Below, piece by piece: positions 623 to 18,789 of a stretch of 46,652 nucleotides of DNA. A program made the translations under genes and the position numbers. Under the pieces are notes generated by a model. It saw only the letters and a program-made list of their open reading frames with translations, was not told the origin of the DNA and ran no database searches. This stretch comes from an uncultured Treponemataceae bacterium (lineage in GTDB: Bacteria; Spirochaetota; Spirochaetia; Treponematales; UBA12059), in the NCBI GenBank assembly GCA_964571545.1, contig CAZNCK010000003.1, forward strand, positions 11,455 through 58,106, written 5' to 3'. Each line of letters begins with the position of its first letter. Position 1 is the stretch's first letter.

Positions 623-3600
623 TTACCGCCCTAACGGAGGACTCCACGCGCGGAGGAATTCCCTAAGCGCACCGTGAGCAGCCTTGGGCCTTTGTTCGGC
701 CCTCAGGTCTTCCCAGCCTGACAGCGCTATGTGGAACGAACGCTCCGGAGTCGGCAGAAAGGCGGTAGGCGCGCCTGCGGGCGACACGGTGTATGCCCAG
801 ATACCGATATCGTCTATCACGGCCGTTTTGAGCGCATCGTGTTCCAGTACGGTTCGCGAGTCGCGGATAGGATCCAGTAATATGCGCCGCTCCGAAGGAT
901 CGGAGACGTTGATCCGGGACCAGGGCAGGCGAAACACTATTGAACCGTCAGACAGTGACTCGGCCAGGCCTCCAGGCCCCACAGGCAACACGCTGCCGTC
1001 CTCCCATGCCGACGAAAAGCTGCGCCCGTCCGCGGTGACCGACCGGGCGTTGACCAGATTCAGGATGCGGGTAAAGCCGCCGGCTTCAGAGTATCGGGGA
1101 AAGAGTCTGCCCCCGCCGCGGTTGTAGTCTGCCTGAACCAGGAGCGTAGCCTCGACCAACGCGCCTTCAGATAATTCAGCCTTTATCAGGAACTCGGAAC
1201 CCTGTGGCGCAAGCGGGCCGCCTGCCGAAAGCCTATATTCCCCGGTGCGACCAGGCACAAGATCGAGCCCTATTCTAAGCGTCGTACTGCCTGCAACCGG
1301 CACCCGCTCAGGTAAGTCAACCCGCAGGTATAGGAACGACGGGTCTCCCCAAGCCTCGAGCCCTTCATCGCCGCTAGCCGAAGAGACCGCCGTGGTCTGC
1401 CATGTCATGATGCCGTAGTTCTGCTCGGGGTCTATGGCGTTGTGCCATAGCGGGTTACGATCGAAGGGTATCATATAGGTTTCGGTTGTCCAGGTCTTCT
1501 TTGCCCATTCGTCGGCCCACTGGAACACCACGCCGCCCGAGGCTCCGCTTGAGGCCATGGCTTTGTACAGGCCGACGATGCCCGCCGCCTGTGCCCCCTC
1601 GCTGAGTCCGCCGTGGTCCAAGCCCTCAGGATGCTTGTGCGCGGTACCAAAACCGGTAGCCAGACCGAACTCGGCCACCACGAGAGGCACGCCGTCGAGC
1701 GCCTCAGTCAACGCTTTGACATAGGCCGCATACCGCAGGTAACCGCGTTCATCCACGGAGAGACTAGCGGCGGCGGCGCCTGGCGCCTCGTATTCTGCGG
1801 TTCTGAACATGAAGTCAGGATAGTTGGGATAGATATGGAAGGCCGCGAAGAATCCGGCCTCGTTACGAGCAGTCTTCTTGATGGCGGAAAAATCAACGGA
1901 CGCGCTGTCATGGTAAGGAGCCTCGGCTTCGCCCTCGGTTTCGCCCTCGGCCTTCCATTCGGCAGAATGGTACAAAGGATCAAGTGTAGGCCAGGAGACA
2001 AAGCCGACGGGCACCTGATCGCCGCCTATGTCGGCTATTCGTCCGGTGGCGCGCTCGGCCATGCTGGCAAGCACGCTCTCGACCGGATGCCCAGGCTCCG
2101 TGGTAAACCAGTCTCCCTTGAGTTGTTCTAACGGGCGCGCCGCCGCCGTGGCGATCGCCTCTTCCGGCAACAATTCGCGCCCTACCAGCACCGCGGCAAG
2201 CCACGGGCTCACGTCTGCCCTATACCGGCCCCAAGCACGGTAAGGGCGCTCGGTTATGTCGGCTCGGCCGTACAGCGCGTCTATCGTCAGGTCGGATTCA
2301 TTGAAATAGGCGGACAGATATTCCGTACCGCCGATGTCGCCGCCGGGAACTTCCTCCTCTGGCCAGATTTCCTGGATCAGGTACAGCGGCTGTTTTGAGA
2401 CCGCGTTCCAGGATGCGAAAGCCCGATAGAAGGCCGGGGGCAATAGTGTATAGACCCGTAACGAATCAAATCCGGCGGCGGACATTCCGTCGAACCAGGC
2501 CAGGTACGTGCCTTCGTCAGTAGGCGGTTCGCCGAACCAGTGGCCCGGCGTGGCAGGGCCCAGGTTGACGCCCTTGACGAACCAGGGACGCCAGGCGCCG
2601 TCAGGATCTCGCTTCTCAAGGTAGCTGTCCGCGGAGCGAAACGCTGATACTGCGCTCTCGGGCTTGGCTGCTCTGTCGGCCAGCACCGTCAGATTGAGCA
2701 CGCGCCAGACAGGCACGATTACCCTGGCTAACCTTGCATGAGCGTCGCTCGGTTCGTCCAGCGTTCGTAGCGCGTTCAGACGCGGCGTCGGATACAGGGT
2801 CGCGCCGGAACGCCCCGACGATGGTTCAAACGCGTCAAGAGCCAGAGCCCAGACCCTGCCCGCTCCGTAACGCCTTTCCGTCAACAACGGAAAGGTTTCG
2901 GGAATGCTATGGCGCTCCAGGAGCAAGCGTCCAGTCGCTTTCAGCCCGAACTGTCCGGTCAACAGAGTTGCGGCGCCGGCATTTCCTGGAACCGCCGCGG
3001 TGCCCGGACTTATGAGGAACCGCGAACCCACCAGAGAGCGAACCGGTATTCCGGCAAGCTCGCCCCGGACGGTCAAGAACCTATCTTCAAGTTCAATGCC
3101 GCGCCGCAACACTATCACGCTACGGTCAAAAGTAGACCGCAGGAGTACGCCCGGTCCTGCCAGATCCCAAGCGCGACGTTCCTGGGATTCCCAGACGGAC
3201 CTTATATCCGCAGACACGTCGGCACTCGACAAATCTTCTATATAAGCACCAACCCAGGCGGCAGGCGCAAGGCCAGTCCAGACGGCCAGCTCGTCAAGCA
3301 AGCGCCTATTTTCAGTACCGCTCAGAGATCGGAATCCGACAAGGACGGACAGGCCACTGATAGCCCTGTCGCGCAGCTCGTCCAGAGCCGGATCGAAGGG
3401 ACCGGCAGGCGCCTGGCCGCTGGCCAAGGTGCCGGCATAGCTCGCAACAAGCGGTTTGTCTATAACCAACAGGTCAGTACTGTTTTTGTCGCCCTCGCTA
3501 TATGAAGCAACACCGGCCTTGCGGGCGAGCATCGACAGGAATCTCGCATCCAGCGCAGGCGCATAGGCTTCGACCCTGAGACCAGGCAGTTCGCCGCGTA

Positions 3601-3679
3601 CTAGGACAGCGACGAACTGCGCGATGCCGATGGCGAGTGCGAGAAACAACATGACAAAGTATTTCAGGTACTTCTTCAT
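623..3679 (-). CDS. Large membrane-anchored protein with a glycoside-hydrolase-like (beta/alpha-barrel) central region; probable polysaccharide-processing partner of the upstream GT2 synthase
   Basis: 1018-aa ORF with an N-terminal hydrophobic anchor (MKKYLKYFVMLFLALAIGIAQFVAVLV). Central segments FVKGVNLGP, LRVYTLLPPAFY, VVAEFGLATGFG and FQWADEWAKKTW resemble barrel glycosidase strands. The ATG at 3679 overlaps the GT2 stop (ATGA, 3676-3679). Confidence 0.55.
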   Translation of the reverse strand: MKKYLKYFVMLFLALAIGIAQFVAVLVRGELPGLRVEAYAPALDARFLSMLARKAGVASYSEGDKNSTDLLVIDKPLVASYAGTLASGQAPAGPFDPALDELRDRAISGLSVLVGFRSLSGTENRRLLDELAVWTGLAPAAWVGAYIEDLSSADVSADIRSVWESQERRAWDLAGPGVLLRSTFDRSVIVLRRGIELEDRFLTVRGELAGIPVRSLVGSRFLISPGTAAVPGNAGAATLLTGQFGLKATGRLLLERHSIPETFPLLTERRYGAGRVWALALDAFEPSSGRSGATLYPTPRLNALRTLDEPSDAHARLARVIVPVWRVLNLTVLADRAAKPESAVSAFRSADSYLEKRDPDGAWRPWFVKGVNLGPATPGHWFGEPPTDEGTYLAWFDGMSAAGFDSLRVYTLLPPAFYRAFASWNAVSKQPLYLIQEIWPEEEVPGGDIGGTEYLSAYFNESDLTIDALYGRADITERPYRAWGRYRADVSPWLAAVLVGRELLPEEAIATAAARPLEQLKGDWFTTEPGHPVESVLASMAERATGRIADIGGDQVPVGFVSWPTLDPLYHSAEWKAEGETEGEAEAPYHDSASVDFSAIKKTARNEAGFFAAFHIYPNYPDFMFRTAEYEAPGAAAASLSVDERGYLRYAAYVKALTEALDGVPLVVAEFGLATGFGTAHKHPEGLDHGGLSEGAQAAGIVGLYKAMASSGASGGVVFQWADEWAKKTWTTETYMIPFDRNPLWHNAIDPEQNYGIMTWQTTAVSSASGDEGLEAWGDPSFLYLRVDLPERVPVAGSTTLRIGLDLVPGRTGEYRLSAGGPLAPQGSEFLIKAELSEGALVEATLLVQADYNRGGGRLFPRYSEAGGFTRILNLVNARSVTADGRSFSSAWEDGSVLPVGPGGLAESLSDGSIVFRLPWSRINVSDPSERRILLDPIRDSRTVLEHDALKTAVIDDIGIWAYTVSPAGAPTAFLPTPERSFHIALSGWEDLRAEQRPKAAHGALREFLRAWSPPLGR

Positions 3680-6531
3680 GCCGCGCCTCCCTTCCTCGCG
3701 AAGCCCTTGCGGGCGAACTTCTGCCAGCCCTTGGACCGGTAGAAAAACTGCGCGAAGGCCCAGACCCTGGACATGCTCATAATCTGCCTAAAGCCGAAAT
3801 TCTCCACGAAGGCAAGCAGGAGGAGGCCGAAGAAATCTTTGGGTTTGAAGTACAGCACCTGCCGTTCTGCGAGGAGTATCGAGCACAGTGAAATCATGAT
3901 GCCGAAGGCCACCGCTATCCCGAAGACGACGAGGCTGACTAATGGATCTATCAAGGCAAAGAAGAGTGATGCCGCGAGTACCAGGTAACCGGACAGCTCC
4001 AGCCATGGGCCAATAAGCTCGAACATGTAGAAATACGGAATGGAGAGCATGCCGCTCATGCCGTACCGGGGGCGAAAGGCCATCTTCCTGTGGTGAAGCA
4101 ATACCTCGATGAGGCCACGGTGCCAGCGATCCCGCTGGCGCATCAGGGTCTTGCCTTCTTCGGGCACCTCGGTCCAACAGTTGGCGTTGTAGCAGTAATC
4201 GACCATGCCGTCCCTGCCGCTCTCGCGTTCATGCCGCACCAACCTGACTACCAGTTCCATGTCCTCGCCTACGGTATCCTTGCGGTAGACGCCCCTGCCG
4301 GTCATGTAGCCGCCAACTTCCAGGAAACGGTCCTTGCGGAACATGCCAAAGGCGCCGGAGATGATGAGGAGTCCGTCGAGCAGCACCCAACCCAGGCGGC
4401 CCGACACGAACGAGCGCAGGTACTCCATGGTCTGGAAGGCCGCCAGCGGTTCGCCTGGCAGGCCGATGCGCTGCAGGTGCCCATGCTCCACCTCGCTGCC
4501 GTTGACTGGAAAGATGTTTCCGCCTATGGCTATGACGGCACGCCTGCTCGCAATTGTCTGCAGCATCGCCCTGAGCATCGATTGCGGGTCGAGCAGTGAA
4601 TCGGCATCGATGCTGCACAGGTACTCGCCCGTGGCGAAATTGGAGCCTGCGTTCAGCGCGTCCGCTTTGCCGCCGTTCGTCTTGTCCACCACGATAAGGT
4701 TGGAGATCGTCGTGGAGCGATAGACGGTTTTTACCGGCATGCACGGCAGGGTGCCTTCGATGCCAGGCGAAGCAGGAACCAGATTAAAGCCCGCAATTAG
4801 TTGCCCTATCGTATCGTCCTTTGAACCATCGTTGACCACGACCATCTGATAGTGAGGATACGCGAGCGCGAGCAGGCTCTCTACCGAATCGACTATGGTG
4901 CTCTCTTCGTTATACGCCGGCGCTATGACGGTGATGGGAGGCAATAGGCCACTGGAAAACAGAAAGTGCTTAAAGCCAGTCTCCCACAGTACTGACTGCG
5001 CCTGAAGCTTGATGGCGGACAGTACAAGCAGGGCCAGGTAGAACGCGTTGACCGCAAGGGTGTACCAGGCGAAAAGGAAATGGAACTCGAATATGAAGCG
5101 GTATAATAATTCTGAACCTGTCATGAAGGTCAGGGCTTGTCCCCAGCGTAGCACGAATACGGCGGGAAAAACCGCAAGTGCCAGGATGACCAGGAATCCT
5201 ATGAACACCTTGTCCATGCGCTTGACCGGAATCCGGGGACGATCCTCTTCGGGTGGCGGAGGCGGCAAATCCAGCTTTGCGCGCAGTTCGGGACCAGCGT
5301 TCCTTGAGAAGAAGTCGCGCTGCCTCGTCTGGACAGGCAGTTCCTCCGCTAGCCGCCGCGACATTTCGTCGCGTACCTCTTCAGGCAAAGGAGACTCAAG
5401 CGTAGACAGGATGGAGCCGCTCCGGTCGAGCGCCAGCAGGCAGGAGATCATACGCTTGAATCCAGCGCGCAGAGGCGTACCCGCGTGATAGGCTATGAAG
5501 TGCATGCGGTATTCAAGTGCCAGACTGATGCCCGCGGCCCGCTCAGCCGAACCGGTTTCGATGGCGTTCATCAGCGAAGCCGCGCCTTCTGGGTTGCGGC
5601 GGTCAATTTCGCGTACTGCCGCGACACCGGCATCGAGAAGAGACGGATCCTCAAACCATGGATCTAGTCGACCGACGTCCTCCGGCGCTAGCTGGCCGCC
5701 GAGGAGTCTGGCAGTCGGCAGCATGAAACGCCGCTCCCGCCGCGCCTTGAAGGCCCCCAGGAACCAGGAAGGCGGAAAGGCCGAAGCCTCGGCTGCCAAT
5801 GCACCCAGCTCATCATCGCGCGTTTCGGCTATCAGCGCAGCCTTGTCCCAGCCGTCCTGTGTCGGGCGCGCCTTGAGGCCCATGAGAAATAAGCGCAGCC
5901 CCGCATCGCCATGAGCGTGCCCGCTGCTTTCATTGTAAGAGGCAAAACGAGAAGCGAGCGGGGTCAGGGTGGAATACCCACGCTCATCGAGCGGAGGATC
6001 TAGCTGGCATAGCTTGTTTGCCAGTTCACCGATATCGAAGCCCGCGCTGATAAGAGCCAGTTGCCTTATCAACACCAAGCGCCCGAAATAGTCGCGTTCA
6101 AACGCAAGATTGTCCAGCAAGGCCCGGGAATCGTCCTCGTAGGAGCCCATCCCCAGGATCAGGTAAGCCCTCAGCCTCCGGTACCTGAACAGCGAGCGGC
6201 AATCCTTCTTGGCCATCGCGAACACGCCGCCCGCCTCGAACGCTTCCCTGACGAGCATCAGCGACGAGCCGCCGTCGGAGCAAGCCTCCAGGGCCAGCCG
6301 GGCAGACACCGCAAAATCAGCGGGATGCCGTCTGGCCAGCGCCTTCAGGGCCTCGCCATCCCTGCTCATCAAGGCTTGCCTGAGCGCTTTATTCCTCGCT
6401 GTCCTCTGAACAAAGGCTTTGCGCCGCCCATGCTTCACGAGCATGACGCCCAAGACCACCAGCGCATCCAGAGCCAGAAGCGCCGCCAGTGAGCGGATCA
6501 ACAGCAACAGACTAGTCGACATCGACGCCAT
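3676..6531 (-). CDS. Family 2 glycosyltransferase, processive membrane-embedded polysaccharide synthase (BcsA/PgaC/NodC-like core) with a long N-terminal extension
   Basis: 951-aa ORF. GT-A motifs are VIAPAYNEE, VVVNDGSKDDT, IDADSLLD and the processive-synthase motif QRDRWHRG (QxxRW). Transmembrane helices lie before and after the catalytic domain. About 450 N-terminal residues follow one TM helix and have no motif I recognise. Confidence 0.85.
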   Translation of the reverse strand: MASMSTSLLLLIRSLAALLALDALVVLGVMLVKHGRRKAFVQRTARNKALRQALMSRDGEALKALARRHPADFAVSARLALEACSDGGSSLMLVREAFEAGGVFAMAKKDCRSLFRYRRLRAYLILGMGSYEDDSRALLDNLAFERDYFGRLVLIRQLALISAGFDIGELANKLCQLDPPLDERGYSTLTPLASRFASYNESSGHAHGDAGLRLFLMGLKARPTQDGWDKAALIAETRDDELGALAAEASAFPPSWFLGAFKARRERRFMLPTARLLGGQLAPEDVGRLDPWFEDPSLLDAGVAAVREIDRRNPEGAASLMNAIETGSAERAAGISLALEYRMHFIAYHAGTPLRAGFKRMISCLLALDRSGSILSTLESPLPEEVRDEMSRRLAEELPVQTRQRDFFSRNAGPELRAKLDLPPPPPEEDRPRIPVKRMDKVFIGFLVILALAVFPAVFVLRWGQALTFMTGSELLYRFIFEFHFLFAWYTLAVNAFYLALLVLSAIKLQAQSVLWETGFKHFLFSSGLLPPITVIAPAYNEESTIVDSVESLLALAYPHYQMVVVNDGSKDDTIGQLIAGFNLVPASPGIEGTLPCMPVKTVYRSTTISNLIVVDKTNGGKADALNAGSNFATGEYLCSIDADSLLDPQSMLRAMLQTIASRRAVIAIGGNIFPVNGSEVEHGHLQRIGLPGEPLAAFQTMEYLRSFVSGRLGWVLLDGLLIISGAFGMFRKDRFLEVGGYMTGRGVYRKDTVGEDMELVVRLVRHERESGRDGMVDYCYNANCWTEVPEEGKTLMRQRDRWHRGLIEVLLHHRKMAFRPRYGMSGMLSIPYFYMFELIGPWLELSGYLVLAASLFFALIDPLVSLVVFGIAVAFGIMISLCSILLAERQVLYFKPKDFFGLLLLAFVENFGFRQIMSMSRVWAFAQFFYRSKGWQKFARKGFARKGGAA

Positions 6532-8218
6532 GCCCTACCAGGTAACGGATGACGCCGAGCAACTCGACAAGAGGAACCGGCTTTTCAAATATATGGAATA
6601 TTTTTAGCGTATGCGCCCGCTCCACCAACTCATCGGTTTTTGACTCGACAATGAGCACGAACGGAACGCGGTTCAGGTCCGCTGAGGCCAACATGCGGGC
6701 CCGAATCTGGAACGCGTCGAACTGCGGCAGGTAGACGTCGGCTATGACGACTTCAGGCTTGTACTGTTCCATCAACTCGAGGGCCTCGCCTCCCCGGGCA
6801 GTCCCGATGGCGGAGAATTCCCTGCGATTGAGGAATTCGACTATGTAATCGGTGCTGATGGCATCGCCGTCCATCACCAGGGCCATGGTCGTTTCGCGAA
6901 GGTCAGCATCGCGCAGGTCGGCGCCGCTCTGATCCAGCACCTCGTTGCCACCCCGCCGCTCCAGCAGCTTGAGCCTAGCCCTTGAAAAAGACTGCAGGCT
7001 AGCCATGCGCTGTTCGGAATCCTCGCCATGTAGCTCGTCACTACCTACAATCGCTATAGAAACGGTCACTGGTCTCGAAAATCGGCGTTCAGCCTCAAGC
7101 GCCGTGCGTATGCCTTCGGTAAGCGCGAAGGATTCTTCCCGGCCGCTCTCCAGCACAAGCAAAAAAACCGGCCCCGACCAACGGAACAGGAAGCCGCCAA
7201 AAGAATGCTCCAGAAGGAACCCCGCGACATCGGCGACCATGCGGTCTCCGCTGGCAAATCCAGCTTCGCGGTTGAGCTCCTTGAGCCTGTCCACCATGAT
7301 GAACACGCCGCAGAAGCGGCTACCCTGCTTCATAAGCGAGCGGAGGAATTCATCCGCGTACGAGCGGCCATACAGCCCGCTGATCCCGTCGCGAAGGGCA
7401 GCGTCGCTGGCAACCACCATTGAAGAACGTAGATCGATATTGTCCGATCGGAGTTTGTCGATTTCATCGAGTAGCGAAACGACATCGCCGGATGATTCCG
7501 CGCTGTTTGCGCCAGCGGCTGCTCCGGGTGTCCAGACGCTCGAGCCGACTATAGAATCCACCCTCATGCACGAACCCGATCTCGGGCATATAAGGACAGC
7601 CGCCTTGTCAAACCCCGCCATGACCTCGTCGAGGAGTGGTCCCGGCCGACCAAACGCCTGTATGAAGGAGCTGTTGGATCGCCCCGGAGCCTCCGCTACG
7701 ATAGGCAAGTCGCGGCCCATGGAGGACCCTATGGTTCCGGTGAACAGGCAACCCGTTCGGCAATGGTAGGCAAAAAGGTAGCCCGGATATCCGGAAAAGA
7801 TGCGGAACTCCAAGACAGAAGGCCCCTCGCAGGAGATGGCGTCGCGCTCCTGATGGACGTACCGGTAGGGTCCGGTCACACCAGCGGCGGCTATGCCCAG
7901 GGCGGACCTCCAATCGGCCACGATCTGACCAGAAAAGCCGCCGATCCGCCAGGCCGCTAGACCCGAAGCCGCAAAAGGAGTGTCGTCAAGAACGACGATG
8001 CGCTCGATGTTTCGTAGCGGGGTTATAGACGACACCGCGGCCAACAGGGCATCGACCTGGTTCGCGGGACCGGCATCCACCGCGATGAACGATTCGCCTT
8101 CCTTGAGGAGATAACAATTGACGCTGAGCACACCGCCCCTGGCTAAGCTGGCCAGCCGCCAGACGCCGTCGGCAATTGCCTCGACGCTTATTTCTTCTGA
8201 CATAGTAATCTCCCGCAC
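6512..8218 (-). CDS. Signal-transduction protein: degenerate metallo-beta-lactamase-like domain + degenerate GGDEF domain + C-terminal receiver (REC) domain
   Basis: The N-terminus has an MBL/flavodiiron-like fold (SVNCYLLKEGESFIAVDAG...VVLDDTPFAASG), where the HxHxDH site reads LDDTPF. The middle has GGDEF-fold landmarks (ISGLYGRSY..., VDRLKELNREAGFASGDRMV), but the GGDEF signature reads SGPVF. The C-terminus is REC (VVIADVYLPQFDAF...PFVLIV). It overlaps both neighbouring genes. Confidence 0.75.
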   Translation of the reverse strand: MREITMSEEISVEAIADGVWRLASLARGGVLSVNCYLLKEGESFIAVDAGPANQVDALLAAVSSITPLRNIERIVVLDDTPFAASGLAAWRIGGFSGQIVADWRSALGIAAAGVTGPYRYVHQERDAISCEGPSVLEFRIFSGYPGYLFAYHCRTGCLFTGTIGSSMGRDLPIVAEAPGRSNSSFIQAFGRPGPLLDEVMAGFDKAAVLICPRSGSCMRVDSIVGSSVWTPGAAAGANSAESSGDVVSLLDEIDKLRSDNIDLRSSMVVASDAALRDGISGLYGRSYADEFLRSLMKQGSRFCGVFIMVDRLKELNREAGFASGDRMVADVAGFLLEHSFGGFLFRWSGPVFLLVLESGREESFALTEGIRTALEAERRFSRPVTVSIAIVGSDELHGEDSEQRMASLQSFSRARLKLLERRGGNEVLDQSGADLRDADLRETTMALVMDGDAISTDYIVEFLNRREFSAIGTARGGEALELMEQYKPEVVIADVYLPQFDAFQIRARMLASADLNRVPFVLIVESKTDELVERAHTLKIFHIFEKPVPLVELLGVIRYLVGHGVDVD

Positions 8219-9845
8219 AGCACCAGAGTCTTCTCGTCTCCAAAACCCCTGCAGAGCAATACGCTGTCCATCGCGGCATGCATTATCTCGAGGCCATAAC
8301 CACGTCTGGCATAGTTCCCTATGGGCGACACGGGCGTAGCGAGCCAGTTGTAATCCGGCCCCTTGTAGCTAAACTCTACTGAAAACAGGCCTTGCCGAAT
8401 GCGCCACTCGACCAAGCAATGCCCCGAACGCCCGCCTAGGCCGTGTTCGGCAACGTTGGAAAGCGCTTCGACGCAGGCCAGCACGAGGCCGCCGTTTTCC
8501 ACCGGATCGACGCTGCCGGCCGCATCCAGCGCCCGCGCCAGCGTCAGGCGAAGCGTTTCGCTGGCTTTGTCCGAAGCCTGCCTGAGAAGCAGGTTCAGAG
8601 AGCCGGTCAGCTCGTCTATGGCAGTTTCCGGCTTCAACGCCTTGACGCAGACTATGCTCACATCGTCAACAAAGCCCGCTTCTGAAAACTCGAATCCAAG
8701 CCGTACAAGCGTATCGGCTATCTCCCTGGCGGTAAATCCGGCGCGGGAACGGGCCACGCGCATGATACGATCCTCGCTAAAAAATGCGCCGTCGTGGCCG
8801 GGGCATTCTGAGAGCCCGTCTGAAAACACGATGAAGAGGTCGCCCTCGCGGTACGGCAATAGGAATGATCTGAATGCCTGCTTCTCTACAAAACCAAGCG
8901 GCATGTCAGCGCCCTTGATGAGCCTGCAGGAATCGGTCGCCTTACGGTAGTGCACGATGGAGGTGTGCCCGAAATCAACGAACTCGGCGAACGCGGTAAG
9001 TTCATGCAGGCGCATATACGAGAACGTGGCTATGCTCCGCCGGTCCAGCAGATGCGGCGTGATGACCCGCTCGGTGGCGGCGCAGATCTCTCTCACAGAG
9101 GGAGCGCTACCCTCAGCCCGTGTCATCATCGCGAGAGACCTGAACAGCCCCACCTTTATCACGGCGCCCATGATCGCGGCATCCATACCCTTGCCCATCA
9201 CATCACCGAGCAGCACATCGACGATATCCGCCAGCAGGTCAACAAATACCACGACGCGCTCGAATCGACGATATCCGGCGCCAGTCTGATCACATCGAGA
9301 AAATCGCCGTCCACCAGCTTGCTCGGCATCGCGGAGCAGGCATATTCCAAATAGGAGGAATCGACATGGGTGCCGTTCACGAGTACGGCCGCCTGTAGCC
9401 TCGCGCTAGCGTCAGCGTCTATGGACTGAGCGCGCGCCAGCCGCTCGCGGCTTTCGGACAACTCCGTTTCATCCTTCAGGAATATGAGCCTCCGCCCAGG
9501 TGTTCCCGGAACCGGCGTATGCCTGACCCTGATCAGCCGTTTACCCCTACCGGGGAATAGACAGGATACGCTGTCCCCGCGAAGTCCTGCTTTCTCCGGA
9601 CCGGTGCCGCTGAACAGCATTGACCACGCCTCGGCGTCCAACACGCCCAACGCTTCCGCAAGCGTGCCCCGCACGACAGTTGAACCGGCGGGCAATCCAG
9701 ACAGGACGGCGAGATTTTTAGCACCCGAAAAGACAGCTTGCCCCGAGTCGTCGCATACCAGAAATGCTCCTTCAGCGACAATCGAGAACGAGGATTCTTC
9801 TACACCGTAGCTGTCGGGTCGCTTCAGTAGCTTCTGGTCATTCAT
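8188..9845 (-). pseudogene. PAS-like sensor + SpoIIE-type PP2C phosphatase + RsbW/SpoIIAB-like HATPase kinase (HsbR/RsbW-type partner-switching protein), split by a 47-nt insertion
   Basis: ORF 9198-9884 ends ...VDGDFLDVIRLAPDIVDSS... and ORF 8188-9252 continues in another frame as ...ADIVDVLLGDVMGKGMDAA...FSDGLSE...DDVSIVCVK. A kinase N-box (CVEALSNVAEHG) follows. A 14-nt direct repeat (9217-9230 and 9264-9277) brackets the frame break. The likely ATG at 9845 overlaps the STAS stop (ATGAATGA). Confidence 0.75.
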
Positions 9846-10185
9846 TATTCCGGGCCATTGCCGAGAGTGAAGCCGCCACGTCATCGTCTATGGCAACGAT
9901 GCTGCTCATGTGCACCATGTTGAAAAGAGCCTTGACTGTGGGCAACGACGAACACAGGCGAATCTGGCCACCTTTAAGCTCAACATCCCGTATCAGACCG
10001 ACTATGGCCCCAAGCCCGGCGCTGTTGATGAACTGCACCTTTGACAGGTCCAGCACGATTTTGCCGCCAGTATCGACCGCGGGGCGAAGCGGTTCGAAGA
10101 ACGCCGGCGCGTTGTTCTGATCGACGGTGCGCATGCCGGGCTTGAGCACGGTGACGCCGCCGGATTCGGCCATTTCATAATCCAT
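9838..10185 (-). CDS. STAS-domain anti-sigma-factor antagonist (SpoIIAA/RsbV/HsbA-like)
   Basis: 115 aa. It carries the hallmark LDLSKVQFINSAGLGAIVG with the phosphorylatable Ser, followed by GGQIRLC and VKALFNM. A GAGGAA ribosome-binding site precedes the ATG. Confidence 0.85.
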   Translation of the reverse strand: MDYEMAESGGVTVLKPGMRTVDQNNAPAFFEPLRPAVDTGGKIVLDLSKVQFINSAGLGAIVGLIRDVELKGGQIRLCSSLPTVKALFNMVHMSSIVAIDDDVAASLSAMARNNE

Positions 10186-10241
10186 AGAGGTTCCTCATCG
10201 ATAAAAGCCTTGAAACGATACAGGTACATACCTGCGTCCCT

Positions 10242-10270
10242 AGTATACTCTCCATTTTGCATCAGCGCAA
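10242..10270 (-). promoter_or_regulatory. Sigma70-like promoter for the STAS/PP2C/GGDEF*-REC/GT2/GH operon
   Basis: The minus strand reads TTGCGC-N17-TATACT (-35 at 10270-10265, -10 at 10247-10242). It sits about 55 nt upstream of the STAS ATG. Confidence 0.4.
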
Positions 10271-10288
10271 AATCATCCGGATCTATAG

Positions 10289-11035
10289 TCAGGGTCGTTG
10301 AAGCGGGGTAAAACTGAAGCGATCTATACAAATCCGGTCTGCTGACTCGGGCGCCCGTCCCTGGAACAACCAAAGGTTGAGCCCGACGCGCTCCCTACCC
10401 TTGGGCGGAGCGCCAAAGGGTTCAGGCTCGGAAACTCCGGATGGCGGATAGCCCCACGAAAATGAGCCTGTAACAGACTCTACGCTGAAACGCACAAGCC
10501 CCGGTTCCCATATAAAGACCAGGGTTGTAGGCATAGAGAAATCGAATTCGGCAAGGCCCGAGCGCTCGGGGCGGTCAGCTGACGGTTGCACGGTACAGTT
10601 GAGGTTAGGAGCCGCTGGTATCGCCCATCGGGCCAGTTCAATATCTATTTCGCGGTTGGCGTAGGCAGGATCATCGTCCCAAGTAAAGAATCCAAACACA
10701 GTCATATCATCCAGCGGCTTCTCCAACGGAGCAAGCACCAGCTCGTAGCGGCCGTAACCCAGGCTTTTCGTCAAGAACAGGTGCGCGCTCGTCCAGTTAC
10801 CAGCGGCAAGGCTGGTTTCCATAATGAGCCTACCCTCGTTATCTAACCGCACATTTCCGCGGCTGAACAGGTTGGGTCCCGGCCCGCGAGGCGTGGCGGA
10901 CTGTATCACCTGCCAGGTATATCCAGAGAACAATATTGTCGAACTCTGACGGATGGCGGGCGCGGTCCAAGCAGGTACACAGAAAAGAGCCGAAATTAAA
11001 GCGATCAGGAACCTGCGTAGACCAGAACTGGTCAC
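10289..11035 (-). CDS. Secreted glycoside hydrolase family 16-like beta-glucanase
   Basis: 248 aa with a signal peptide (LIALISALFCVPAWTAPA). It has the GH16 catalytic signature ExDxE as REIDIELARW. The GTG start overlaps the stop of the upstream gene. Confidence 0.65.
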   Translation of the reverse strand: MTSSGLRRFLIALISALFCVPAWTAPAIRQSSTILFSGYTWQVIQSATPRGPGPNLFSRGNVRLDNEGRLIMETSLAAGNWTSAHLFLTKSLGYGRYELVLAPLEKPLDDMTVFGFFTWDDDPAYANREIDIELARWAIPAAPNLNCTVQPSADRPERSGLAEFDFSMPTTLVFIWEPGLVRFSVESVTGSFSWGYPPSGVSEPEPFGAPPKGRERVGLNLWLFQGRAPESADRICIDRFSFTPLQRP

Positions 11036-11598
11036 TGCGACTCTCGGCGAGCTGTTTCCCGCAAGGCCTGGAACGCGGGCCCGTCTTCCCTCCAGGCATG
11101 GCAGGAATCCTTCAGGAACAGGGCGCCGGAGGCGGCACGCCCGCTTGCCGCGGCGCCGGACTCGCGGCTTTCAATATCGAGCAATGCCCAGTACCCCTGC
11201 AGGATGGCGGGCGCCATGGTCGTCAGCAAGTGGACCAGGTGCGTACACCCAACCTTGCCCCCGGCTAGATTCTTGATCACTCCCGTGAACCCCCGCCCTA
11301 TGGAAATACCCAGCACGGCATCCAAAGAATGCGCCAGAAAATTACAATCATCCATGGGCACGGTATTGATAGCGACCTCTATATCCTCGATAGTCAGCTC
11401 GGGTAATTTTAAAAGGACATGGATTTCAAGATTGTGCAGGTCCCCGGCCTCGAACCGGTAGCCGTTGAAGCCCACGCTCGGAGCGTGCCGCACATCCCTG
11501 AATTGCCCCGTGCACAGGATATGAGAGGCATCCACCGCAAACGTAGACATTTCGATAGTCCTGGTGTGGAACTGCATATAAGCATGAAAAAGCGGCAT
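11032..11598 (-). CDS. DUF2889-like hypothetical protein
   Basis: 188 aa. The GKVGCTHLVHLLTTMAP segment matches my recollection of the GCTHL motif of DUF2889. Its stop overlaps the GH16 start. Confidence 0.4.
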   Translation of the reverse strand: MPLFHAYMQFHTRTIEMSTFAVDASHILCTGQFRDVRHAPSVGFNGYRFEAGDLHNLEIHVLLKLPELTIEDIEVAINTVPMDDCNFLAHSLDAVLGISIGRGFTGVIKNLAGGKVGCTHLVHLLTTMAPAILQGYWALLDIESRESGAAASGRAASGALFLKDSCHAWREDGPAFQALRETARRESQ

Positions 11599-11617
11599 AA
11601 ATCCAGTAAAAACAGCC

Positions 11618-13558
11618 TTACGAAGCCAGCTCCATGATAAACCTCGAACCGTGAGCGCGGTCTATGCTGATGGTGCCGCCCATCTGCTGTACCAGCATAC
11701 CTATAAGTTCCATGCCAAAGCCGGTAGACGACTCCAAGGAAATGGAATCAGGCAGGCCGGGGCCATTGTCCGCATATATGATCGTGATCGTAGATCCGGT
11801 TTTAGTCGCTGTAATGGTTATAGTTCGTTCCGAGATTCCAGTGAAGGCGTATTTCATTGAATTGGATATCAGTTCATTGATGATTATTGCCAGCGGAGAA
11901 AGGATTTCTTCCTTTAATATAAAACCGCTGGTTTCGACGATGGCTTTGACCGCCGGGACGGCAGAGAAAACACCCATGATTTCATCGACCAAGGGAGGAA
12001 GAAAAACCTGTACATCGACTTCCTGGAGATTCTTGAATTGATAGAGTCTGTCATAGAGGCTGCTCATGCGCTTCAATCGCGCGGCGGCGTTCATAAGTAT
12101 CTCAGTGCACTTGTCGTCATTCTGCATCTGTGCCTGCAACGATAAAAGACCGTGTATGCTGCTCATGTTGTTCTTCAGGCGATGATGCGTCTCCCTGAGC
12201 AGTATATCCTTTTCCTTCAGCAGTCCTGTTATTTTATCTTCGGCAGCCTTGCGTTCAGTGATATCGGTAAAAACACCAAGCACGCACTTCTTCCCATCCA
12301 TTTCAACGGGGCACGTATTGATTATCGCAAGGAAGATGCCGCCGTCCTTTCTCAGCATCCTGATATCATTCACGGTAACGAATTCACCCCCAGCCAAGCG
12401 TTTGTAATATTCCTGAATTCTCTGAAACTCGGCTTCCGGATGGAGAGACAGCGGATGAAGCTCATACAGTTCTTCATTCGTGTAACCGAGCATCTGACGG
12501 ACAGCCTCGTTCACGAACAGAATCCTGCCGTTCCCGGAATCTACCGCGATGATGCCCTGGGGTATGGTCTCCAGCACCGTACGCATGCGAAGTTCTGATT
12601 TCTTTATGATTTCCTTTCTTTCAGATAATTCTCGCTTGGAACGCCGAAGCCTTGAAATAGCGACATACTGTCCAACGATACCGGCAAGAGCCACCATAAA
12701 CGCGATGATGATGGCTACGACTGTATTCCGTTCCATCCGTATCCATTGCTCGGAGGTCAGAAATACGACCTCTTTGGAGCGCCAAGAATCCAGGATCGTA
12801 TCGTAGATACCCTCATCCTTAATTTCAGCCAGGGCATTGTTGATCTCGGCCAGCAGCTGGACATTATCCTTGCTCACCGCTATGGCGGATGAACTCCTGC
12901 TTACGGGTTCTTCGACAATACGGACACCTCTGATCTCACTTTTCGCCAGCACATAGGAGCCAACCCAGCGATCCGCCAGCACGGCGTCGATCTGCCCCGC
13001 AAGCAGCAACTCGAATCCCCGTTCAAAATCAGGAATGATCTCCACGTTTATCAACGGCTCTTCCTTGAGTAACTGGACGGGCAATCCGCTTTTCTCTACG
13101 CCGACTTTCATCCCGTTCAGATCGTGCAGGGTTACGACGCCGTGCCGGTCGGCTTTTAGGAAAATCGAGAACTCGGACACCAGCAAGGGTCCTGAGAAGC
13201 TAAGCGTCTCCAGCCGTTCCGGAGTCTGGTTAATCTGCAGCAAGGCGTCTGCCCGCCCCTCCCGTACGAGGCGCTGCGCCTCGGTCCAGTTCATGGCGCG
13301 GATTTCAACGGGGCGTTTCATATGCTTGGAGATAGCCTTCATCAAATCAACAGCGATACCCGCTGGCTGTCCGCCGTCAAGGTAGACAATGGGTGGGAGC
13401 GTCTCGTTGCCCAGAAACAAGGCAGGAGCCGTAGAGGATATGGTGGAAGTCTGTTGAGCCGCCGGTTCCGCGGCAAAAACAACAGCCATAAGGAGGACAA
13501 TAGTCGCAATTTTGAATCTATTTTGCATACAATTACCTCGCAACAGCAATAATATCAC
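11618..13558 (-). CDS. Sensor histidine kinase: periplasmic solute-binding (SBP_bac_3-like) domain, TM, PAS, HisKA_2, HATPase_c
   Basis: 646 aa. Signal/TM, then an amino-acid-binding-protein-like region (GGQPAGIAVDLMKAI...DAVLADR). A TM helix and a PAS domain follow (IPQGIIAVDSGNGRILFVNEA). The H-box HHRLKNNMSSIHGLLSLQ is HisKA_2/HWE type. The ATPase motifs are INELISNSMKYAF and DNGPGLP. Confidence 0.85.
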   Translation of the reverse strand: MILLLLRGNCMQNRFKIATIVLLMAVVFAAEPAAQQTSTISSTAPALFLGNETLPPIVYLDGGQPAGIAVDLMKAISKHMKRPVEIRAMNWTEAQRLVREGRADALLQINQTPERLETLSFSGPLLVSEFSIFLKADRHGVVTLHDLNGMKVGVEKSGLPVQLLKEEPLINVEIIPDFERGFELLLAGQIDAVLADRWVGSYVLAKSEIRGVRIVEEPVSRSSSAIAVSKDNVQLLAEINNALAEIKDEGIYDTILDSWRSKEVVFLTSEQWIRMERNTVVAIIIAFMVALAGIVGQYVAISRLRRSKRELSERKEIIKKSELRMRTVLETIPQGIIAVDSGNGRILFVNEAVRQMLGYTNEELYELHPLSLHPEAEFQRIQEYYKRLAGGEFVTVNDIRMLRKDGGIFLAIINTCPVEMDGKKCVLGVFTDITERKAAEDKITGLLKEKDILLRETHHRLKNNMSSIHGLLSLQAQMQNDDKCTEILMNAAARLKRMSSLYDRLYQFKNLQEVDVQVFLPPLVDEIMGVFSAVPAVKAIVETSGFILKEEILSPLAIIINELISNSMKYAFTGISERTITITATKTGSTITIIYADNGPGLPDSISLESSTGFGMELIGMLVQQMGGTISIDRAHGSRFIMELAS

Positions 13559-13597
13559 ATATATTGGAGTAATTAAATGTAAAACGCTCAGGATTAT

Positions 13598-15226
13598 CTA
13601 CGCTGAACCTAGCTGTCCGGTCTTCTCGCTATAATACTGATAGTCCCCCTCGTACACCTTGAGGGCGCCGCGGTTCACCTCGAAGACCCGGTTGGCCAGG
13701 TGCTTGAGGAAATACCTGTCATGGCTGACTATCATGATGGTACCATCGAAGTCCTTGAGCGCTCCCAATAGCACTTCCCGGCTCGCTATATCCAGATGGT
13801 TGGTAGGCTCGTCAAGGACCAGGAAATTGACCGGCGAAGACAACAGACACGCAAGCATCACGCGCGTCTTCTCTCCGCCCGAGAGCACCGAGATGCGCTT
13901 GTCGGTATCGTCGCCCGAGAACTGGAACGAGCCCAGCAGGTTCTTTATCGTGCCCACCGACTCACGGGGGAGCCTGCTCTGCAGTTCCTCAAAAATGGTC
14001 ATGGACGCATTCAGCGTGTCACCGGAATACTGACTGAAGTAACCGACGTTGACACTCGCCCCCAACAGGCAGGAGCCGGAGGTAGCGTCCGTCTGCCCGG
14101 TAATCACCTTGAGCAGCGTGGACTTTCCGGCCCCGTTGATGCCTGTCACGGCTATCTTGTTGCCGCGCGCCACGATGCCGGAAATATTTGCGAACACCGG
14201 GTGCGCATTGCCGTCGGTCTTTAACCAGGACTTTGCTAGATCCTTTAACTCGACGACCACGTCGCCGCTACGCTTGACGGCGCCAAACTCAAACTTGATT
14301 GTCTTGACCTCGCGCGGAATTACGATGCGCTCTATCTTCTCAAGCATCTTTATCCTGGACTGCACCTGAGCCGCGTGCGAGGCACGGGCCGCGAAGCGCG
14401 CGATGAATTCCTCATCCTTCTCGAATGCCGCCTGTTGACGCTTGTGCGACGCTATCAATTGTTCACGCCGTATCTCGCGCTCACGCAGATAGAAGTCGTA
14501 GTCGCCCGTATACGAGGTAATCGTCCCGTCCGCCACTTCCACCGTACGCGAACAAATTCTCGTCATAAACTCGCGGTCGTGGCTCGTCATAACGAGCGCG
14601 CCTTTGAATTCCTTGAGCCAGTTTTCAAGCCACAGAATAGTCTCGATATCCAGGTGGTTGGTAGGTTCGTCTATCAGCAACCCGTGCGGATTGAGGAGCA
14701 GTATCTTGGCTAGTTCTATGCGCATCTTCCAGCCGCCGGAGAAGTTCTCCACCCGTTCGCCCCAACGCTCCCTGCCTATGCCCAGGCCAGACAGAATTGT
14801 CTGGGCGCGGTTCTCCAGATCATACCCGTCCAGGTGCTGAAACTCCATCTGCAGGTGGCCGTACCTGTCCATTTCCGCATCGCTGAGCGGCGCCCCGGCC
14901 GGGTCAGACATGCGGTGTTCCAGCGCTTGCAGCTCCAACCCGATGCCAAACACCGTGCCGGCCCCGGAGAGCACTTCTTCCAGCGCGGTCCTGCCTGACA
15001 TCTCTCCCACATCCTGAGAGAAGTAACCCACAACGATGCCAGGATCGACCAGCACCTCGCCGGAGTCCGGGTGCTCCAGAGCCGCTATGAGTTTAAACAC
15101 CGTCGTCTTGCCCGCCCCGTTCGGACCAACCAAGCCTATCTTGTCGCCAGGGCGAACGAGGAAATCAGCATCCTTGAACAGAATACGGTCACCGTATCCC
15201 ATCGTTACTTTTGCGAGGTTTATCAC
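13598..15226 (-). CDS. ABC-F family ATPase (two tandem ABC domains, no TM domain)
   Basis: 542 aa. Two Walker A motifs (GPNGAGKTT, GINGAGKST), two ABC signatures (FSGGWKMR, LSGGEKTR) and two Walker B motifs (LLIDEPTNHLD, LVLDEPTNHLD). It has a GTG start. Confidence 0.9.
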   Translation of the reverse strand: MINLAKVTMGYGDRILFKDADFLVRPGDKIGLVGPNGAGKTTVFKLIAALEHPDSGEVLVDPGIVVGYFSQDVGEMSGRTALEEVLSGAGTVFGIGLELQALEHRMSDPAGAPLSDAEMDRYGHLQMEFQHLDGYDLENRAQTILSGLGIGRERWGERVENFSGGWKMRIELAKILLLNPHGLLIDEPTNHLDIETILWLENWLKEFKGALVMTSHDREFMTRICSRTVEVADGTITSYTGDYDFYLREREIRREQLIASHKRQQAAFEKDEEFIARFAARASHAAQVQSRIKMLEKIERIVIPREVKTIKFEFGAVKRSGDVVVELKDLAKSWLKTDGNAHPVFANISGIVARGNKIAVTGINGAGKSTLLKVITGQTDATSGSCLLGASVNVGYFSQYSGDTLNASMTIFEELQSRLPRESVGTIKNLLGSFQFSGDDTDKRISVLSGGEKTRVMLACLLSSPVNFLVLDEPTNHLDIASREVLLGALKDFDGTIMIVSHDRYFLKHLANRVFEVNRGALKVYEGDYQYYSEKTGQLGSA

Positions 15227-16381: not shown

Positions 16382-16455
16382 CGATACGCTATCTTATCGT
16401 CTTTTCAGGGTAAAAAGCAATGCCGCGGCTTTTGTAAGGATAAACAGAATATACG

Positions 16456-17001
16456 TTAAACCCTTAGCAAGCCACGGAACGCCCTGACGTTATAATACGA
16501 TTGCGCGCCGTTGTGATACACGAAGACAGTATCGTAGCGACGATCGGCAAAGAGGGCGCCGCCTAGTTTTCTAATGGAGGAAGGAGTCTTCACCCAGCTC
16601 GATGTTTTCGTGTCAAACTCTCCAAGCTTCTGAAGATCGCGATATTGTTCTTCAGTTAGGAGTTCAATGCCCATGGTAGCCGCCATATCGACGGCATTGG
16701 CTTCAGGCTTGAATTCCTTTCTTGATTCCTGCCCTTCCCTGTCGTAACAGATACTTCTACGACCCTTGGGGCTTTCAGCTGAGCAATCAATAAATATATA
16801 TTCGCCTGCCTTTGCGCCAAACCCGACAACATCGGGTTCGCCGCCGGTTATCTCCATTTCGTTGAGCGACCTAAGTTTATCTGAATTGGCCTCCAACTTT
16901 GCTTGTACGGCGGACCATTCAAGGTCCTTATGACGGTTCATGTTTTTGCCAAAACGTGTCTTTAATGCACCCACTAGTTCTTCGCGTTGTTTTGCATCCA
17001 T
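16456..17001 (-). CDS. DUF4256 domain-containing protein
   Basis: 181 aa. Strings typical of this family are present: RFGKNMNRHKDLEW, NEMEITGGEPDVVG, DCSAESPKGRRSICYDRE, LGEFDTKTSSWVKTP. Confidence 0.7.
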   Translation of the reverse strand: MDAKQREELVGALKTRFGKNMNRHKDLEWSAVQAKLEANSDKLRSLNEMEITGGEPDVVGFGAKAGEYIFIDCSAESPKGRRSICYDREGQESRKEFKPEANAVDMAATMGIELLTEEQYRDLQKLGEFDTKTSSWVKTPSSIRKLGGALFADRRYDTVFVYHNGAQSYYNVRAFRGLLRV

Positions 17002-17107
17002 GTTCTTGACTCCTTACAGTCCCGTCTTTATCGATTGCAACGCTAATCAGCAAGCGTCGTTCCAAAATATATCGATTACTACACGTACAATCAATAATGC
17101 AAGGTCC

Positions 17108-17919: not shown

Positions 17920-17972
17920 AGAAAAACTCCTTAGGCGTACCCGCGGGGTCCAGCCAATATACTGGGCTGAAT

Positions 17973-18788: not shown

Positions 18789-18789
18789 A

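Follow-up and report, generated by a model that had tools for sequence, protein, structure and literature searches.

A six-gene exopolysaccharide synthase cassette with a built-in partner-switching module in an uncultivated groundwater spirochaete

Does a partner-switching module, made up of a STAS protein with its kinase and phosphatase, serve the polysaccharide synthase operon in which its genes lie, and on what might it act there? This question is raised by a stretch of 46,652 nucleotides (nt) from an uncultured Treponemataceae bacterium (GenBank assembly GCA_964571545.1, contig CAZNCK010000003.1, positions 11,455 to 58,106 of the forward strand), which is referred to here as the window and to which all coordinates apply unless a compared locus is named. 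Open reading frame (ORF) calls on the window place six close-packed genes on the minus strand at 623–11035. We conclude that these genes make up a synthase-dependent exopolysaccharide cassette, carried by an uncultivated groundwater spirochaete. In the order of transcription, the genes encode a GH16-like glycosidase, a STAS-domain protein, a fused PP2C phosphatase/RsbW-type kinase, a protein with a degenerate ODP domain (di-iron, metallo-beta-lactamase-like), a degenerate GGDEF domain and a receiver (REC) domain, referred to below as the adaptor, a family-2 glycosyltransferase (GT2) synthase, and a glycosidase-like partner of 1018 amino acids (aa) (Table 1). An initial annotation, made from the sequence of the window, had proposed that the STAS and PP2C/kinase genes are hard-wired to the synthase operon.

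The link between switch and synthase was examined from both sides. Relatives of the synthase were collected from 5.8 billion protein clusters and by a one-genome-per-species scan with the synthase alignment; the compared loci are labeled L001–L102, and L092 is the European Nucleotide Archive (ENA) record of the source scaffold. The cluster search returned 17 close relatives of 938–991 aa, all from metagenome-assembled genomes (MAGs) of Spirochaetia. All synthase relatives with at least 49% identity carry the switch genes, and the order STAS, PP2C/kinase, ODP/GGDEF/REC, GT2 and a partner of ~1000–1090 aa was kept at every close-relative locus inspected. The same order was found at about 14 distinct loci, down to ~30% identity (L001, L003/4, L005, L006, L009/10, L011, L012, and L096–L102), and the set is retained in L006, where the partner has 35–36% identity. 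The flanks of these loci differ, with nagA/nagB in L001, MCP genes in L003/4, and radical-SAM/DUF4130 genes in L009–L011. In the reverse test, metagenome contigs were scanned with the PP2C/kinase alignment. All PP2C/kinase relatives with at least 39% identity (L096–L101), and one with 30% (L102), lay inside the cassette; those with 29% or less were generic PP2C-HATPase genes followed by a STAS gene, without the synthase and without the N-terminal domain of the cassette protein. The PP2C/kinase subfamily is therefore exclusive to the cassette, and the switch is dedicated to the synthase operon. Thus, the proposed link was conserved in both directions, and the check that had been set in advance, namely that homologous loci keep the partner-switch genes beside the synthase, gave a positive result in varied flanks.

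We also analyzed how far the cassette extends beyond this lineage. Of 557 synthase relatives (one genome per species), the 80 best loci were searched with tblastn using each window protein, and their ORFs and Pfam domains were determined. A wider core emerged, consisting of the GH16 enzyme, the ODP/GGDEF/REC protein (635–695 aa), the GT2 synthase (~955–1022 aa), and the partner (~1045–1088 aa). This core occurs without STAS or PP2C/kinase genes in Treponemataceae, a Leptospira biflexa MAG, Sphaerochaeta, several Bacillota (among them Eubacteriaceae bacterium ES2, whose genome is complete), Acholeplasmataceae, and Izemoplasmatales, and in Bacillota and Mollicutes it is often found without the partner, a clan GH-A protein as described below. 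The STAS/PP2C-kinase pair is thus a lineage-specific add-on placed between the GH16 and regulator genes, and the one regulator found with the synthase throughout is the ODP/GGDEF/REC adaptor; the two glycosidase-like enzymes are usually, but not always, present as well. The dedication of the module to the synthase, as initially annotated, stands in the sense of a dedicated subfamily, and has to be narrowed to an accessory input of one spirochaete lineage. Farther out, only the GT2 domain is shared (37–47% identity), in Acidobacteriota, Myxococcota, sphingomonads, Chryseobacterium, Mesorhizobium, and haloarchaea. These distant GT2s typically have a separate HEAT-repeat protein upstream, with a hybrid kinase, receivers, an Hpt protein, and a YaiO-type outer-membrane barrel nearby. 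On Mesorhizobium ciceri pMESCI01 (L094 2141–7686), for example, two receivers, a YaiO-family barrel, a HEAT-repeat protein, the GT2, and an Hpt protein were found, and in Chryseobacterium gilvum (L085 2462–11252) the GT2 is fused to a sulfatase-type domain beside a large hybrid kinase. The overall picture is that of a broad family of "HEAT + GT2" synthases whose regulators seem to be interchangeable.

What kind of switch is it? The STAS protein scored 59.3 bits against TIGR00377 (the anti-sigma-factor-antagonist superfamily; cut-off, 53.45), and Ser55, in the motif QFINSAGLG that is conserved in the alignment of all cassette homologues, is its putative phosphorylatable serine. In the PP2C/kinase protein, HATPase_c_2 scored 37.7 bits (cut-off, 27.4) and is of the RsbW/SpoIIAB type. 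The repaired alignment (see below) contains invariant PP2C aspartates (D192, D194, D212, D340, and D391/D392) and an invariant kinase N-box (E457/N461/H465) and G-box (G513-Y-G515), and both enzymatic halves of the switch protein are thus predicted to keep their catalytic residues. The N-terminal ~190 residues matched no family, and ~110 of the N-terminal residues matched cassette copies only. The description of this gene as PAS-like/PP2C/HATPase was borne out by Pfam for the PP2C and HATPase_c_2 parts; a PAS domain found no support, with no Pfam match in five PP2C/kinase homologues even at E ≤ 1, and the gene is not one ORF in the window. Pfam gave no Response_reg match in this protein either. 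The protein sequences therefore point to a STAS protein, an RsbW-type kinase, and a PP2C phosphatase, that is, to the parts of a partner switch without its sigma-factor output element. A classical switch, in which the kinase domain is the anti-sigma factor for a sigma factor encoded elsewhere and controls transcription, either of this operon or of a regulon, rather than synthase activity, would fit the TIGR00377 score, the RsbW/SpoIIAB type of the HATPase_c_2 domain, and the distant PP2C-HATPase and STAS pairs found in many unrelated contexts. However, no sigma factor gene was found in or beside any of the ~14 cassettes examined, the switch genes lie within the operon among structural genes with overlapping codons, and the PP2C/kinase subfamily is confined to the cassette. 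We consider the classical arrangement quite unlikely, and we regard the STAS/kinase/phosphatase set as a partner switch that has no sigma factor and serves a polysaccharide machine.

In the window, the PP2C/kinase gene is split into two parts (9198–9884 and 8188–9252) by 47 extra bases, which are flanked by a direct repeat of 13–14 nt. When the 47 bases are removed, GDFLDVIRLAPDIVDVLLGDVMGKG and a 549-aa product are restored, and this product aligns without gaps at the site with intact homologues of 519–556 aa; the closest relative, L011, shows exactly 47 gap columns opposite the insert. The source scaffold (L092; ANAN16-1_SAMN03202996 scaffold_169, ENA, 103 kb, from a groundwater metagenome) reads ...GGATATCGTCGAT-NNNNNNNNNN-TGCCTGACCGAT-TCGAGCG... 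at the site, with a run of 10 N and 12 nt that are absent from the window (L092 ~5233–5300). Since the break falls on a run of N in the source scaffold, it is an assembly artefact at an unresolved contig join and not a pseudogene, and a real gene disruption was dropped as an explanation once the N run had been seen. Under a further alternative, the switch genes are inactive passengers: the PP2C/kinase gene is truly frameshifted, the STAS protein is always unphosphorylated, and the polysaccharide is made constitutively. The frameshift in the window sequence and L007, which lost the PP2C/kinase gene and kept STAS, speak for it, and natural sypE frameshifts in Vibrio fischeri provide a parallel. 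Against it stand the 10 N and the divergent sequence at the site in the source scaffold, the 34 extra nt, which match nothing else and do not occur a second time in the window, the repeat, which is typical of overlapping contig ends, and the otherwise intact reading frame and catalytic residues of the PP2C/kinase. We therefore judge this alternative very unlikely. Additionally, 57 nt (L092 2871–2927) are missing from the window near 11570, so that the window and the ENA record represent two versions of the same assembly. This difference alters the predicted N-terminus of a neighboring DUF2889 protein (MGRLTSLAGEKV... vs. MPLFHAYMQF...). The window seems to be a gap-edited version of the assembly, and other small frameshifts in it may be artefacts as well.

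The adaptor had been described as a degenerate MBL/degenerate GGDEF/REC protein, and its weak ODP match, its GGDEF signature and its REC match agree with this. The ODP domain (PF19583) scored 29.3 bits in the window (cut-off, 27.2) and 117–227 bits in STAS-less relatives; at STAS-less loci the E-values were 1e-33 to 1e-67, and 3.8e-17 in a Tenericutes MAG (L052). The ODP-strong relatives keep His/Asp positions in SHQDPD, HWRT, SSDLFG, and PQHGS, which we take to be metal ligands by analogy with flavodiiron proteins. At the same positions the window has VLDDTPF, DWRS, GTIGSS, and PRSGS, so that all are replaced. Loss of the ligands is confined to the window's own subclade (relatives with at least 42% identity) and suggests that the phospho-switch took over from a di-iron sensory input.

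The GGDEF signature is SGPVF in the window and HGATF, DGYQF, QGVVF, or SGGVF in the others. Neither the GG[DE]EF signature nor the RxxD inhibitory-site (I-site) motif was present in any of the 14 aligned adaptor members. Judging from these motifs, the domain would be neither a cyclase nor an I-site receptor, and the degenerate GGDEF was rejected as an I-site receptor of cyclic di-GMP (c-di-GMP) because RxxD is missing. In the receiver of the window clade, the acceptor position is Asp (IADV) and the K-P pair is kept, but Val occupies the Thr/Ser position and the pocket reads D-G-D; in the wider family, Glu occupies the acceptor position. No conserved cognate histidine kinase for the receiver was found across the compared loci. 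A histidine kinase at 11618–13558 could feed the Asp-containing receiver in the window lineage. As a conserved partner it was rejected, because this kinase and the DUF2889 gene were confined to L011 and L092, the closest relatives, and lie outside the conserved cassette.

These findings bear on a c-di-GMP route, in which the degenerate GGDEF protein is a c-di-GMP/GTP receptor that activates the synthase, in the manner of PelD, YdaK, or PssE, and the STAS protein modulates a cyclase or the receptor. Such a route would account for the GGDEF-fold domain that is always found alongside the synthase; it has a precedent in HsbA-HsbD (PMC5085249), and a separate GGDEF protein is encoded 5 kb away (15392–16381). 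However, RxxD and GG[DE]EF are missing throughout the aligned members, Pfam and curated models revealed neither PilZ nor MshEN nor any other known c-di-GMP-binding domain in synthase or partner, and the separate GGDEF gene is not conserved at other loci and looks truncated. A c-di-GMP route is thus unlikely.

The next question is whether the synthase offers the switch a place to act. The motifs D565/D569 (DGS.D), D639-A-D641, G752-E-D754, and Q796-R-D-R-W800 were invariant in 16 homologues and the model has transmembrane (TM) helices on both sides of the catalytic domain, as expected of the QxxRW GT2 synthase in the initial annotation; the protein is predicted to be a processive inverting family-2 synthase. 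The AF2 model of the synthase had an overall predicted local distance difference test (pLDDT) value of 69 and was built from 16 sequences. It begins with an N-terminal TM helix and a strongly basic stretch, and the next domain is therefore placed in the cytoplasm. Residues ~55–420 form an all-helical HEAT/ARM-like solenoid of ~370 aa (pLDDT ~80–90), which is followed by a TM hairpin, the GT2 domain, and C-terminal TM helices. A Foldseek search with the model gave weak matches to karyopherin/armadillo folds (E ~1e-3), the search being weak because the catalytic half was poorly modeled from so few sequences. In distant relatives, the counterpart of the HEAT-like domain is a separate HEAT_2 protein, whose gene precedes that of a short GT2. 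In the modeled structure, this domain is an obvious candidate docking surface for cytoplasmic regulators.

Among curated families, the best match of the GT2 was TIGR03937 (PgaC_IcaA; 1.3e-31, 110 bits vs. a cut-off of 422.3), and TIGR03030 (CelA, cellulose synthase) gave 15 bits vs. 699. Membership in the Pga, Bcs/curdlan, or NodC families was rejected because the scores are far under the cut-offs; the earlier observation that the locus matches no known synthase layout was thus supported by profile searches. Identity with Romboutsia RiGT2 was also rejected, as RiGT2 is BcsA-like with a PilZ domain. GT2 homologues in a plasmid collection carried generic names only. Among curated models, source annotations ("glycosyltransferase," "hypothetical protein"), and literature searches, none describes the cassette or the wider core. 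The locus had been proposed as an undescribed system, and this holds for the cassette, for which no curated family or paper was found; the control of polysaccharides by partner switching, in contrast, has precedents, which are discussed at the end.

Two glycosidase-like enzymes bear on the nature of the polymer. The GH16-like window protein (248 aa) had no Pfam match by itself; its homologues in L007, L027, and L019 matched GH16 (PF00722) at 1.9e-8 to 2.6e-22, and E129-I-D131-I-E133 was invariant in 12 GH16-like sequences. The best solved structures found with the family profile were bacterial 1,3-1,4-beta-glucanases (lichenases; E ~1e-17 to 1e-18), and laminarinase gave 0.34. The GH16 gene adjoins the synthase in most loci, and its product is predicted to be a secreted lichenase-like GH16 enzyme that is a conserved cassette member. 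The 1018-aa partner matched no sequence family, and nothing among solved structures by sequence. Its AF2 model (pLDDT 90.5) consists of one TM helix, an alpha/beta domain, a (beta/alpha)8 barrel (~345–760), and beta-sandwich domains. Foldseek placed GH157 endo-beta-1,3-glucanase at the top (5e-14), followed by GH2, GH164, GH5, and GH72, the GH72 neighbor being the beta-1,3-glucanosyltransferase Gas2; the identity to GH157 was 11–12% with a TM-score of 0.47, and membership in GH157 itself is not established. The clan GH-A landmarks R408 (after strand 2), E502, H615-x-Y617 (after strand 6), and E670 were invariant in 44 partner sequences, and in the model E502 follows strand 494–500 (strand 4) and E670 lies in strand 666–671 (strand 7). 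The model thus suggests that the partner has a clan GH-A retaining glycosidase fold, closest to GH157. This gives substance to the earlier label "glycosidase-like," with the catalytic Glu pair invariant. A natural GT2-partner fusion, P0057 (1735 aa, in L007), argues for physical coupling of the two proteins. At L007, a separate 184-aa ORF stands where the N-terminal part of the synthase would be expected. Elsewhere, in Thermus, Terriglobales, and others, the GH-A barrel of the partner is fused to TPR repeats; in Thermus amyloliquefaciens (L008 10001–12382), the barrel-TPR gene lies beside MurJ and LytR-CpsA-Psr genes, with no adjoining GT2.

Because both accessory enzymes point toward beta-1,3 (and beta-1,4) links, we give an even chance to the reading that the polymer is a beta-glucan, with beta-1,3 links and possibly beta-1,4 links as well. 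A related alternative is that the product, rather than a secreted biofilm polysaccharide, is a periplasmic or envelope beta-glucan made by the GT2 with a transglycosylase, the switch answering osmotic or envelope stress. NdvB-type cyclic beta-1,3-glucan synthases combine GH17 and GT2. The natural fusion of GT2 with a clan GH-A domain and the presence of Gas2 among the structural neighbors would suit this alternative, which is nevertheless improbable: the same core occurs in monoderm Bacillota and in wall-less Mollicutes, often without the GH-A partner, and the partner is not GH17 by any profile.

Taken together, the best explanation of the locus is a phospho-switch on the cassette synthase that probably toggles polymer production, and we hold this explanation as a whole to be fairly probable. 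In the mechanism that we propose, the unique N-terminal domain of the phosphatase/kinase would sense a signal and set the balance between the phosphorylated and dephosphorylated forms of STAS Ser55. One form of the STAS protein would bind the ODP/GGDEF/REC adaptor, the HEAT domain of the synthase, or both, and polymerization would be turned on with no transcription step; the analogy with SypA and All4160 makes the unphosphorylated form the most likely active one. We infer that the action on the synthase is post-translational. Outside the membrane, the GH16 and GH-A enzymes would probably act on the nascent polymer by trimming, releasing, or remodeling it, which are the roles of BcsZ, PgaB, PslG, and PelA in other polysaccharide systems.

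Several points weigh against this explanation. The target of the STAS protein is read from synteny only, and the sequence of the PP2C/kinase gene falls on a scaffold gap in the window. In L007, a long-read locus (7346–15208) whose partner has 35–36% identity, STAS lies directly upstream of the ODP/GGDEF/REC gene with 85 nt between them and there is no PP2C/kinase gene; the enzyme pair is therefore either not needed there or supplied from another locus. Both L006 and L007 carry STAS, yet retain part of the ODP ligands, and the "sensor replacement" correlation is therefore imperfect. As for the polymer, the curated families nearest to the GT2 are GlcNAc-polymer synthases, though at a score far below the cut-off, and a CE4 deacetylase-like gene lies beside the GH16 gene in four relatives and is absent from the window; both findings point away from a plain glucan. 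CE4 was not accepted as a cassette member because it is limited to these four loci (Table 1); the adjoining CE4-like genes hint that the polymer may be acetylated in some lineages.

A more far-reaching version, which we regard as tentative and clearly less probable, is that the widespread ODP/dead-GGDEF/pseudo-receiver protein gates the HEAT-GT2 synthase directly by O2 or iron, without c-di-GMP, and that in one lineage a STAS/PP2C-kinase pair acting on the same adaptor replaced the decayed ODP domain. If true, this would be a natural swap of the sensory input of a polysaccharide machine, with possibly a new bacterial beta-1,3/1,4-glucan. The phospho-switch on the synthase is also of interest without this extension. 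The post-translational switching of exopolysaccharide synthases is understood mainly for c-di-GMP receptors, and in partner-switch control (Syp, Hmp, and Anabaena) the direct target is mostly unknown. The cassette is compact, with six genes that include one synthase, a STAS protein, a bifunctional enzyme, and an adaptor. The loci form a natural series, comprising the core with intact ODP, the core with STAS and partly intact ODP, and the core with STAS and dead ODP, as well as STAS without the kinase and a synthase-partner fusion, and with this series the target question becomes directly testable. The cassette and its core are an unstudied polysaccharide system in relatives of Treponema, Leptospira, and Sphaerochaeta, in gut and sediment Bacillota, and in Mollicutes, and one that is possibly linked to the sensing of O2 or iron.

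The arrangement of the genes is summarized in Table 1. The initial annotation listed five consecutive minus-strand genes. Four of these were found as single ORFs (9838–10185, 6512–8218, 3676–6531, and 623–3679), and 8188–9845 was not; the five are present in the order given, and a sixth gene, the GH16-like one, had been overlooked. Every junction from STAS to partner had been said to overlap. All four overlaps exist, as ATGAATGA between STAS and PP2C/kinase, ATGA between GT2 and partner, and 8188–8203 (16 nt) and 6512–6522 (11 nt) at the other two, which shrink from 8188–8218 and 6512–6531 when the starts supported by homologues and by the gene calls of the source record are used. The switch genes are translationally coupled to the synthase genes through overlapping start and stop codons. 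The earlier-proposed promoter TTGCGC-N17-TATACT was found upstream of STAS. It agrees with the consensus at 8 of 12 positions, which is below the threshold of the consensus scan, and hence it was unlisted there; the region is not enriched in promoter-like sites relative to shuffled sequence. We accept it as a probable promoter because three relatives whose intergenic sequence has otherwise diverged (L011, L097, and L009, the last with TTGCGC-N17-TACAAT) have kept both hexamers at the 17-nt distance, and it probably drives the transcription unit from STAS to the partner.

Table 1. Features of the cassette in the window, and CE4-like genes at compared loci.
Feature	Sequence	Coordinates	Strand	Evidence or remark
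GH16-like glycosidase, 248 aa	window	10289..11035	-	signal peptide, EIDIE motif; conserved cassette member
Probable sigma-70-type promoter, TTGCGC-N17-TATACT	window	10242..10270	-	in the 103-nt gap upstream of the STAS gene
STAS-domain protein, 115 aa	window	9838..10185	-	Pfam STAS 1.7e-17; Ser55 in QFINSAGLG; overlap with next gene at 9838-9845
N-terminal domain (~190 aa)/PP2C (SpoIIE)/HATPase_c_2 kinase	window	8188..9845	-	SpoIIE 2.7e-29, HATPase_c_2 2.5e-9; interrupted in window
47 extra bases	window	9230..9276		repeat copy of GGATATCGTCGAT plus 34 nt; break PP2C/kinase frame at contig join
Degenerate ODP (di-iron MBL-like)/degenerate GGDEF/atypical receiver protein	window	6512..8203 (ORF to 8218)	-	ODP 9.7e-7, GGDEF 3e-10, REC 2.6e-9
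Processive GT2 synthase (predicted), 948-951 aa	window	3676..6522 (ORF to 6531)	-	Pfam GT2 1e-20; overlap with next gene at 3676-3679
Membrane-anchored extracytoplasmic partner (predicted), 1018 aa	window	623..3679	-	AF2 model, Foldseek
CE4-like gene	L006	400..2802	-	
CE4-like gene	L007	4154..6535	-	
CE4-like gene	L035	10202..11158	-	
CE4-like gene	L045	~11176..11442		

Upstream of the cassette, the DUF2889 gene (11032–11598) overlaps the start of the GH16 gene by 4 nt, and is itself preceded by the histidine kinase mentioned above, which has the architecture SBP_bac_3-PAS-HisKA_2-HATPase. In the 329-aa protein encoded at 15392–16381 on the minus strand, the GGDEF match ends at profile position 98 of 161, at the C-terminus of the protein, so that either a diguanylate cyclase gene is truncated here or the assembly is again at fault. 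The G+C content falls from ~0.60 in the cassette to 0.40–0.46 at 16–22 kb (16000–22000). Farther along, type I restriction-modification genes were found (hsdM, 28223–29857; hsdS, 30636–31868; hsdR, 35959–38592), with an AAA_21/AbiEii-like ATPase gene (34279–35544) inserted between hsdS and hsdR. The parts at 16000–22000 and 28223–38592 may be a horizontally acquired defence island.

How does the cassette compare with known systems? The list of precedents in the initial annotation, which named sigma factors and the HptB-HsbR-HsbA pathway, was incomplete, because Vibrio fischeri SypA/SypE and Anabaena HenR/All4160 were omitted. SypA and SypE are an established case of partner-switch polysaccharide control and act on biofilm polysaccharide downstream of transcription, and the target of SypA is still unknown (PMC4517449; PMC10120452). 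As in the cassette, a single-domain STAS protein and one kinase/PP2C polypeptide are both encoded inside the polysaccharide locus. However, SypE has the order kinase-REC-PP2C, whereas the cassette protein has the order N-terminal domain-PP2C-kinase and no receiver, and syp is an 18-gene locus with multiple glycosyltransferases, whereas the cassette has a single processive GT2; syp also has neither an ODP/GGDEF/REC protein nor the two glycosidase-like enzymes (GH16, GH-A).

The most direct precedent is the Anabaena system of HenR (REC-SpoIIE), the kinase Alr3423, and All4160, a STAS-glycosyltransferase fusion, with the related All2285 and XssP; there, STAS phosphorylation has been proposed to regulate a polysaccharide glycosyltransferase directly, the unphosphorylated form being active (bioRxiv 10.64898/2026.04.08.717354; PMC13555669). 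In Anabaena, STAS and glycosyltransferase form one polypeptide, and the genes for kinase and phosphatase are separate and unlinked, whereas in the cassette STAS is free, kinase and phosphatase are fused, and the synthase has a HEAT-like domain. The Anabaena paper also lists Nostoc Hmp and S. meliloti as sigma-less polysaccharide partner switching. In Pseudomonas aeruginosa HptB-HsbR-HsbA-HsbD, the STAS partner HsbA acts on a GGDEF protein, in addition to a sigma/anti-sigma pair (PMC5085249). HsbR shares the PP2C-then-HATPase order with the cassette protein, but it has an N-terminal receiver fed by HptB, which the cassette protein does not have. Furthermore, HsbD is an active cyclase working through c-di-GMP, whereas the cassette GGDEF is degenerate in all members, and the hsb genes, unlike the cassette switch genes, are not embedded in a synthase operon.

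On the synthase side, the cassette resembles PgaABCD/IcaADBC in its membrane GT2 with flanking TM helices and its dedicated extracytoplasmic processing enzyme. In contrast to Pga/Ica, the window has no PgaD/IcaD, PgaA porin, or PgaB CE4 domain, and the cassette GT2 has an extra N-terminal region of 470 aa with the HEAT-like domain, together with other accessory enzymes. In PelD-PelF, Bacillus YdaK-YdaM, and Listeria PssE-PssC, a dead-GGDEF protein lies beside a dedicated synthase, and these receptors keep RxxD and bind c-di-GMP. The adaptor is likewise a catalytically dead GGDEF protein that adjoins a synthase and is dedicated to it; unlike PelD, YdaK, and PssE, it lacks RxxD, is soluble, and has ODP and receiver domains. 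BgsA of S. meliloti and RiGT2 of Romboutsia ilealis (PMC10374906) are GT2 synthases of beta-1,3/1,4-glucan. Their product class is the substrate class of the lichenase-like GH16 of the cassette, although BgsA and RiGT2 are BcsA-like with PilZ or a C-terminal c-di-GMP site and the window GT2 has no PilZ. The principle of the switch is known from a few bacteria, and the cassette joins it to a HEAT-GT2 synthase and an ODP/GGDEF/REC adaptor in a combination of parts that had not been described.

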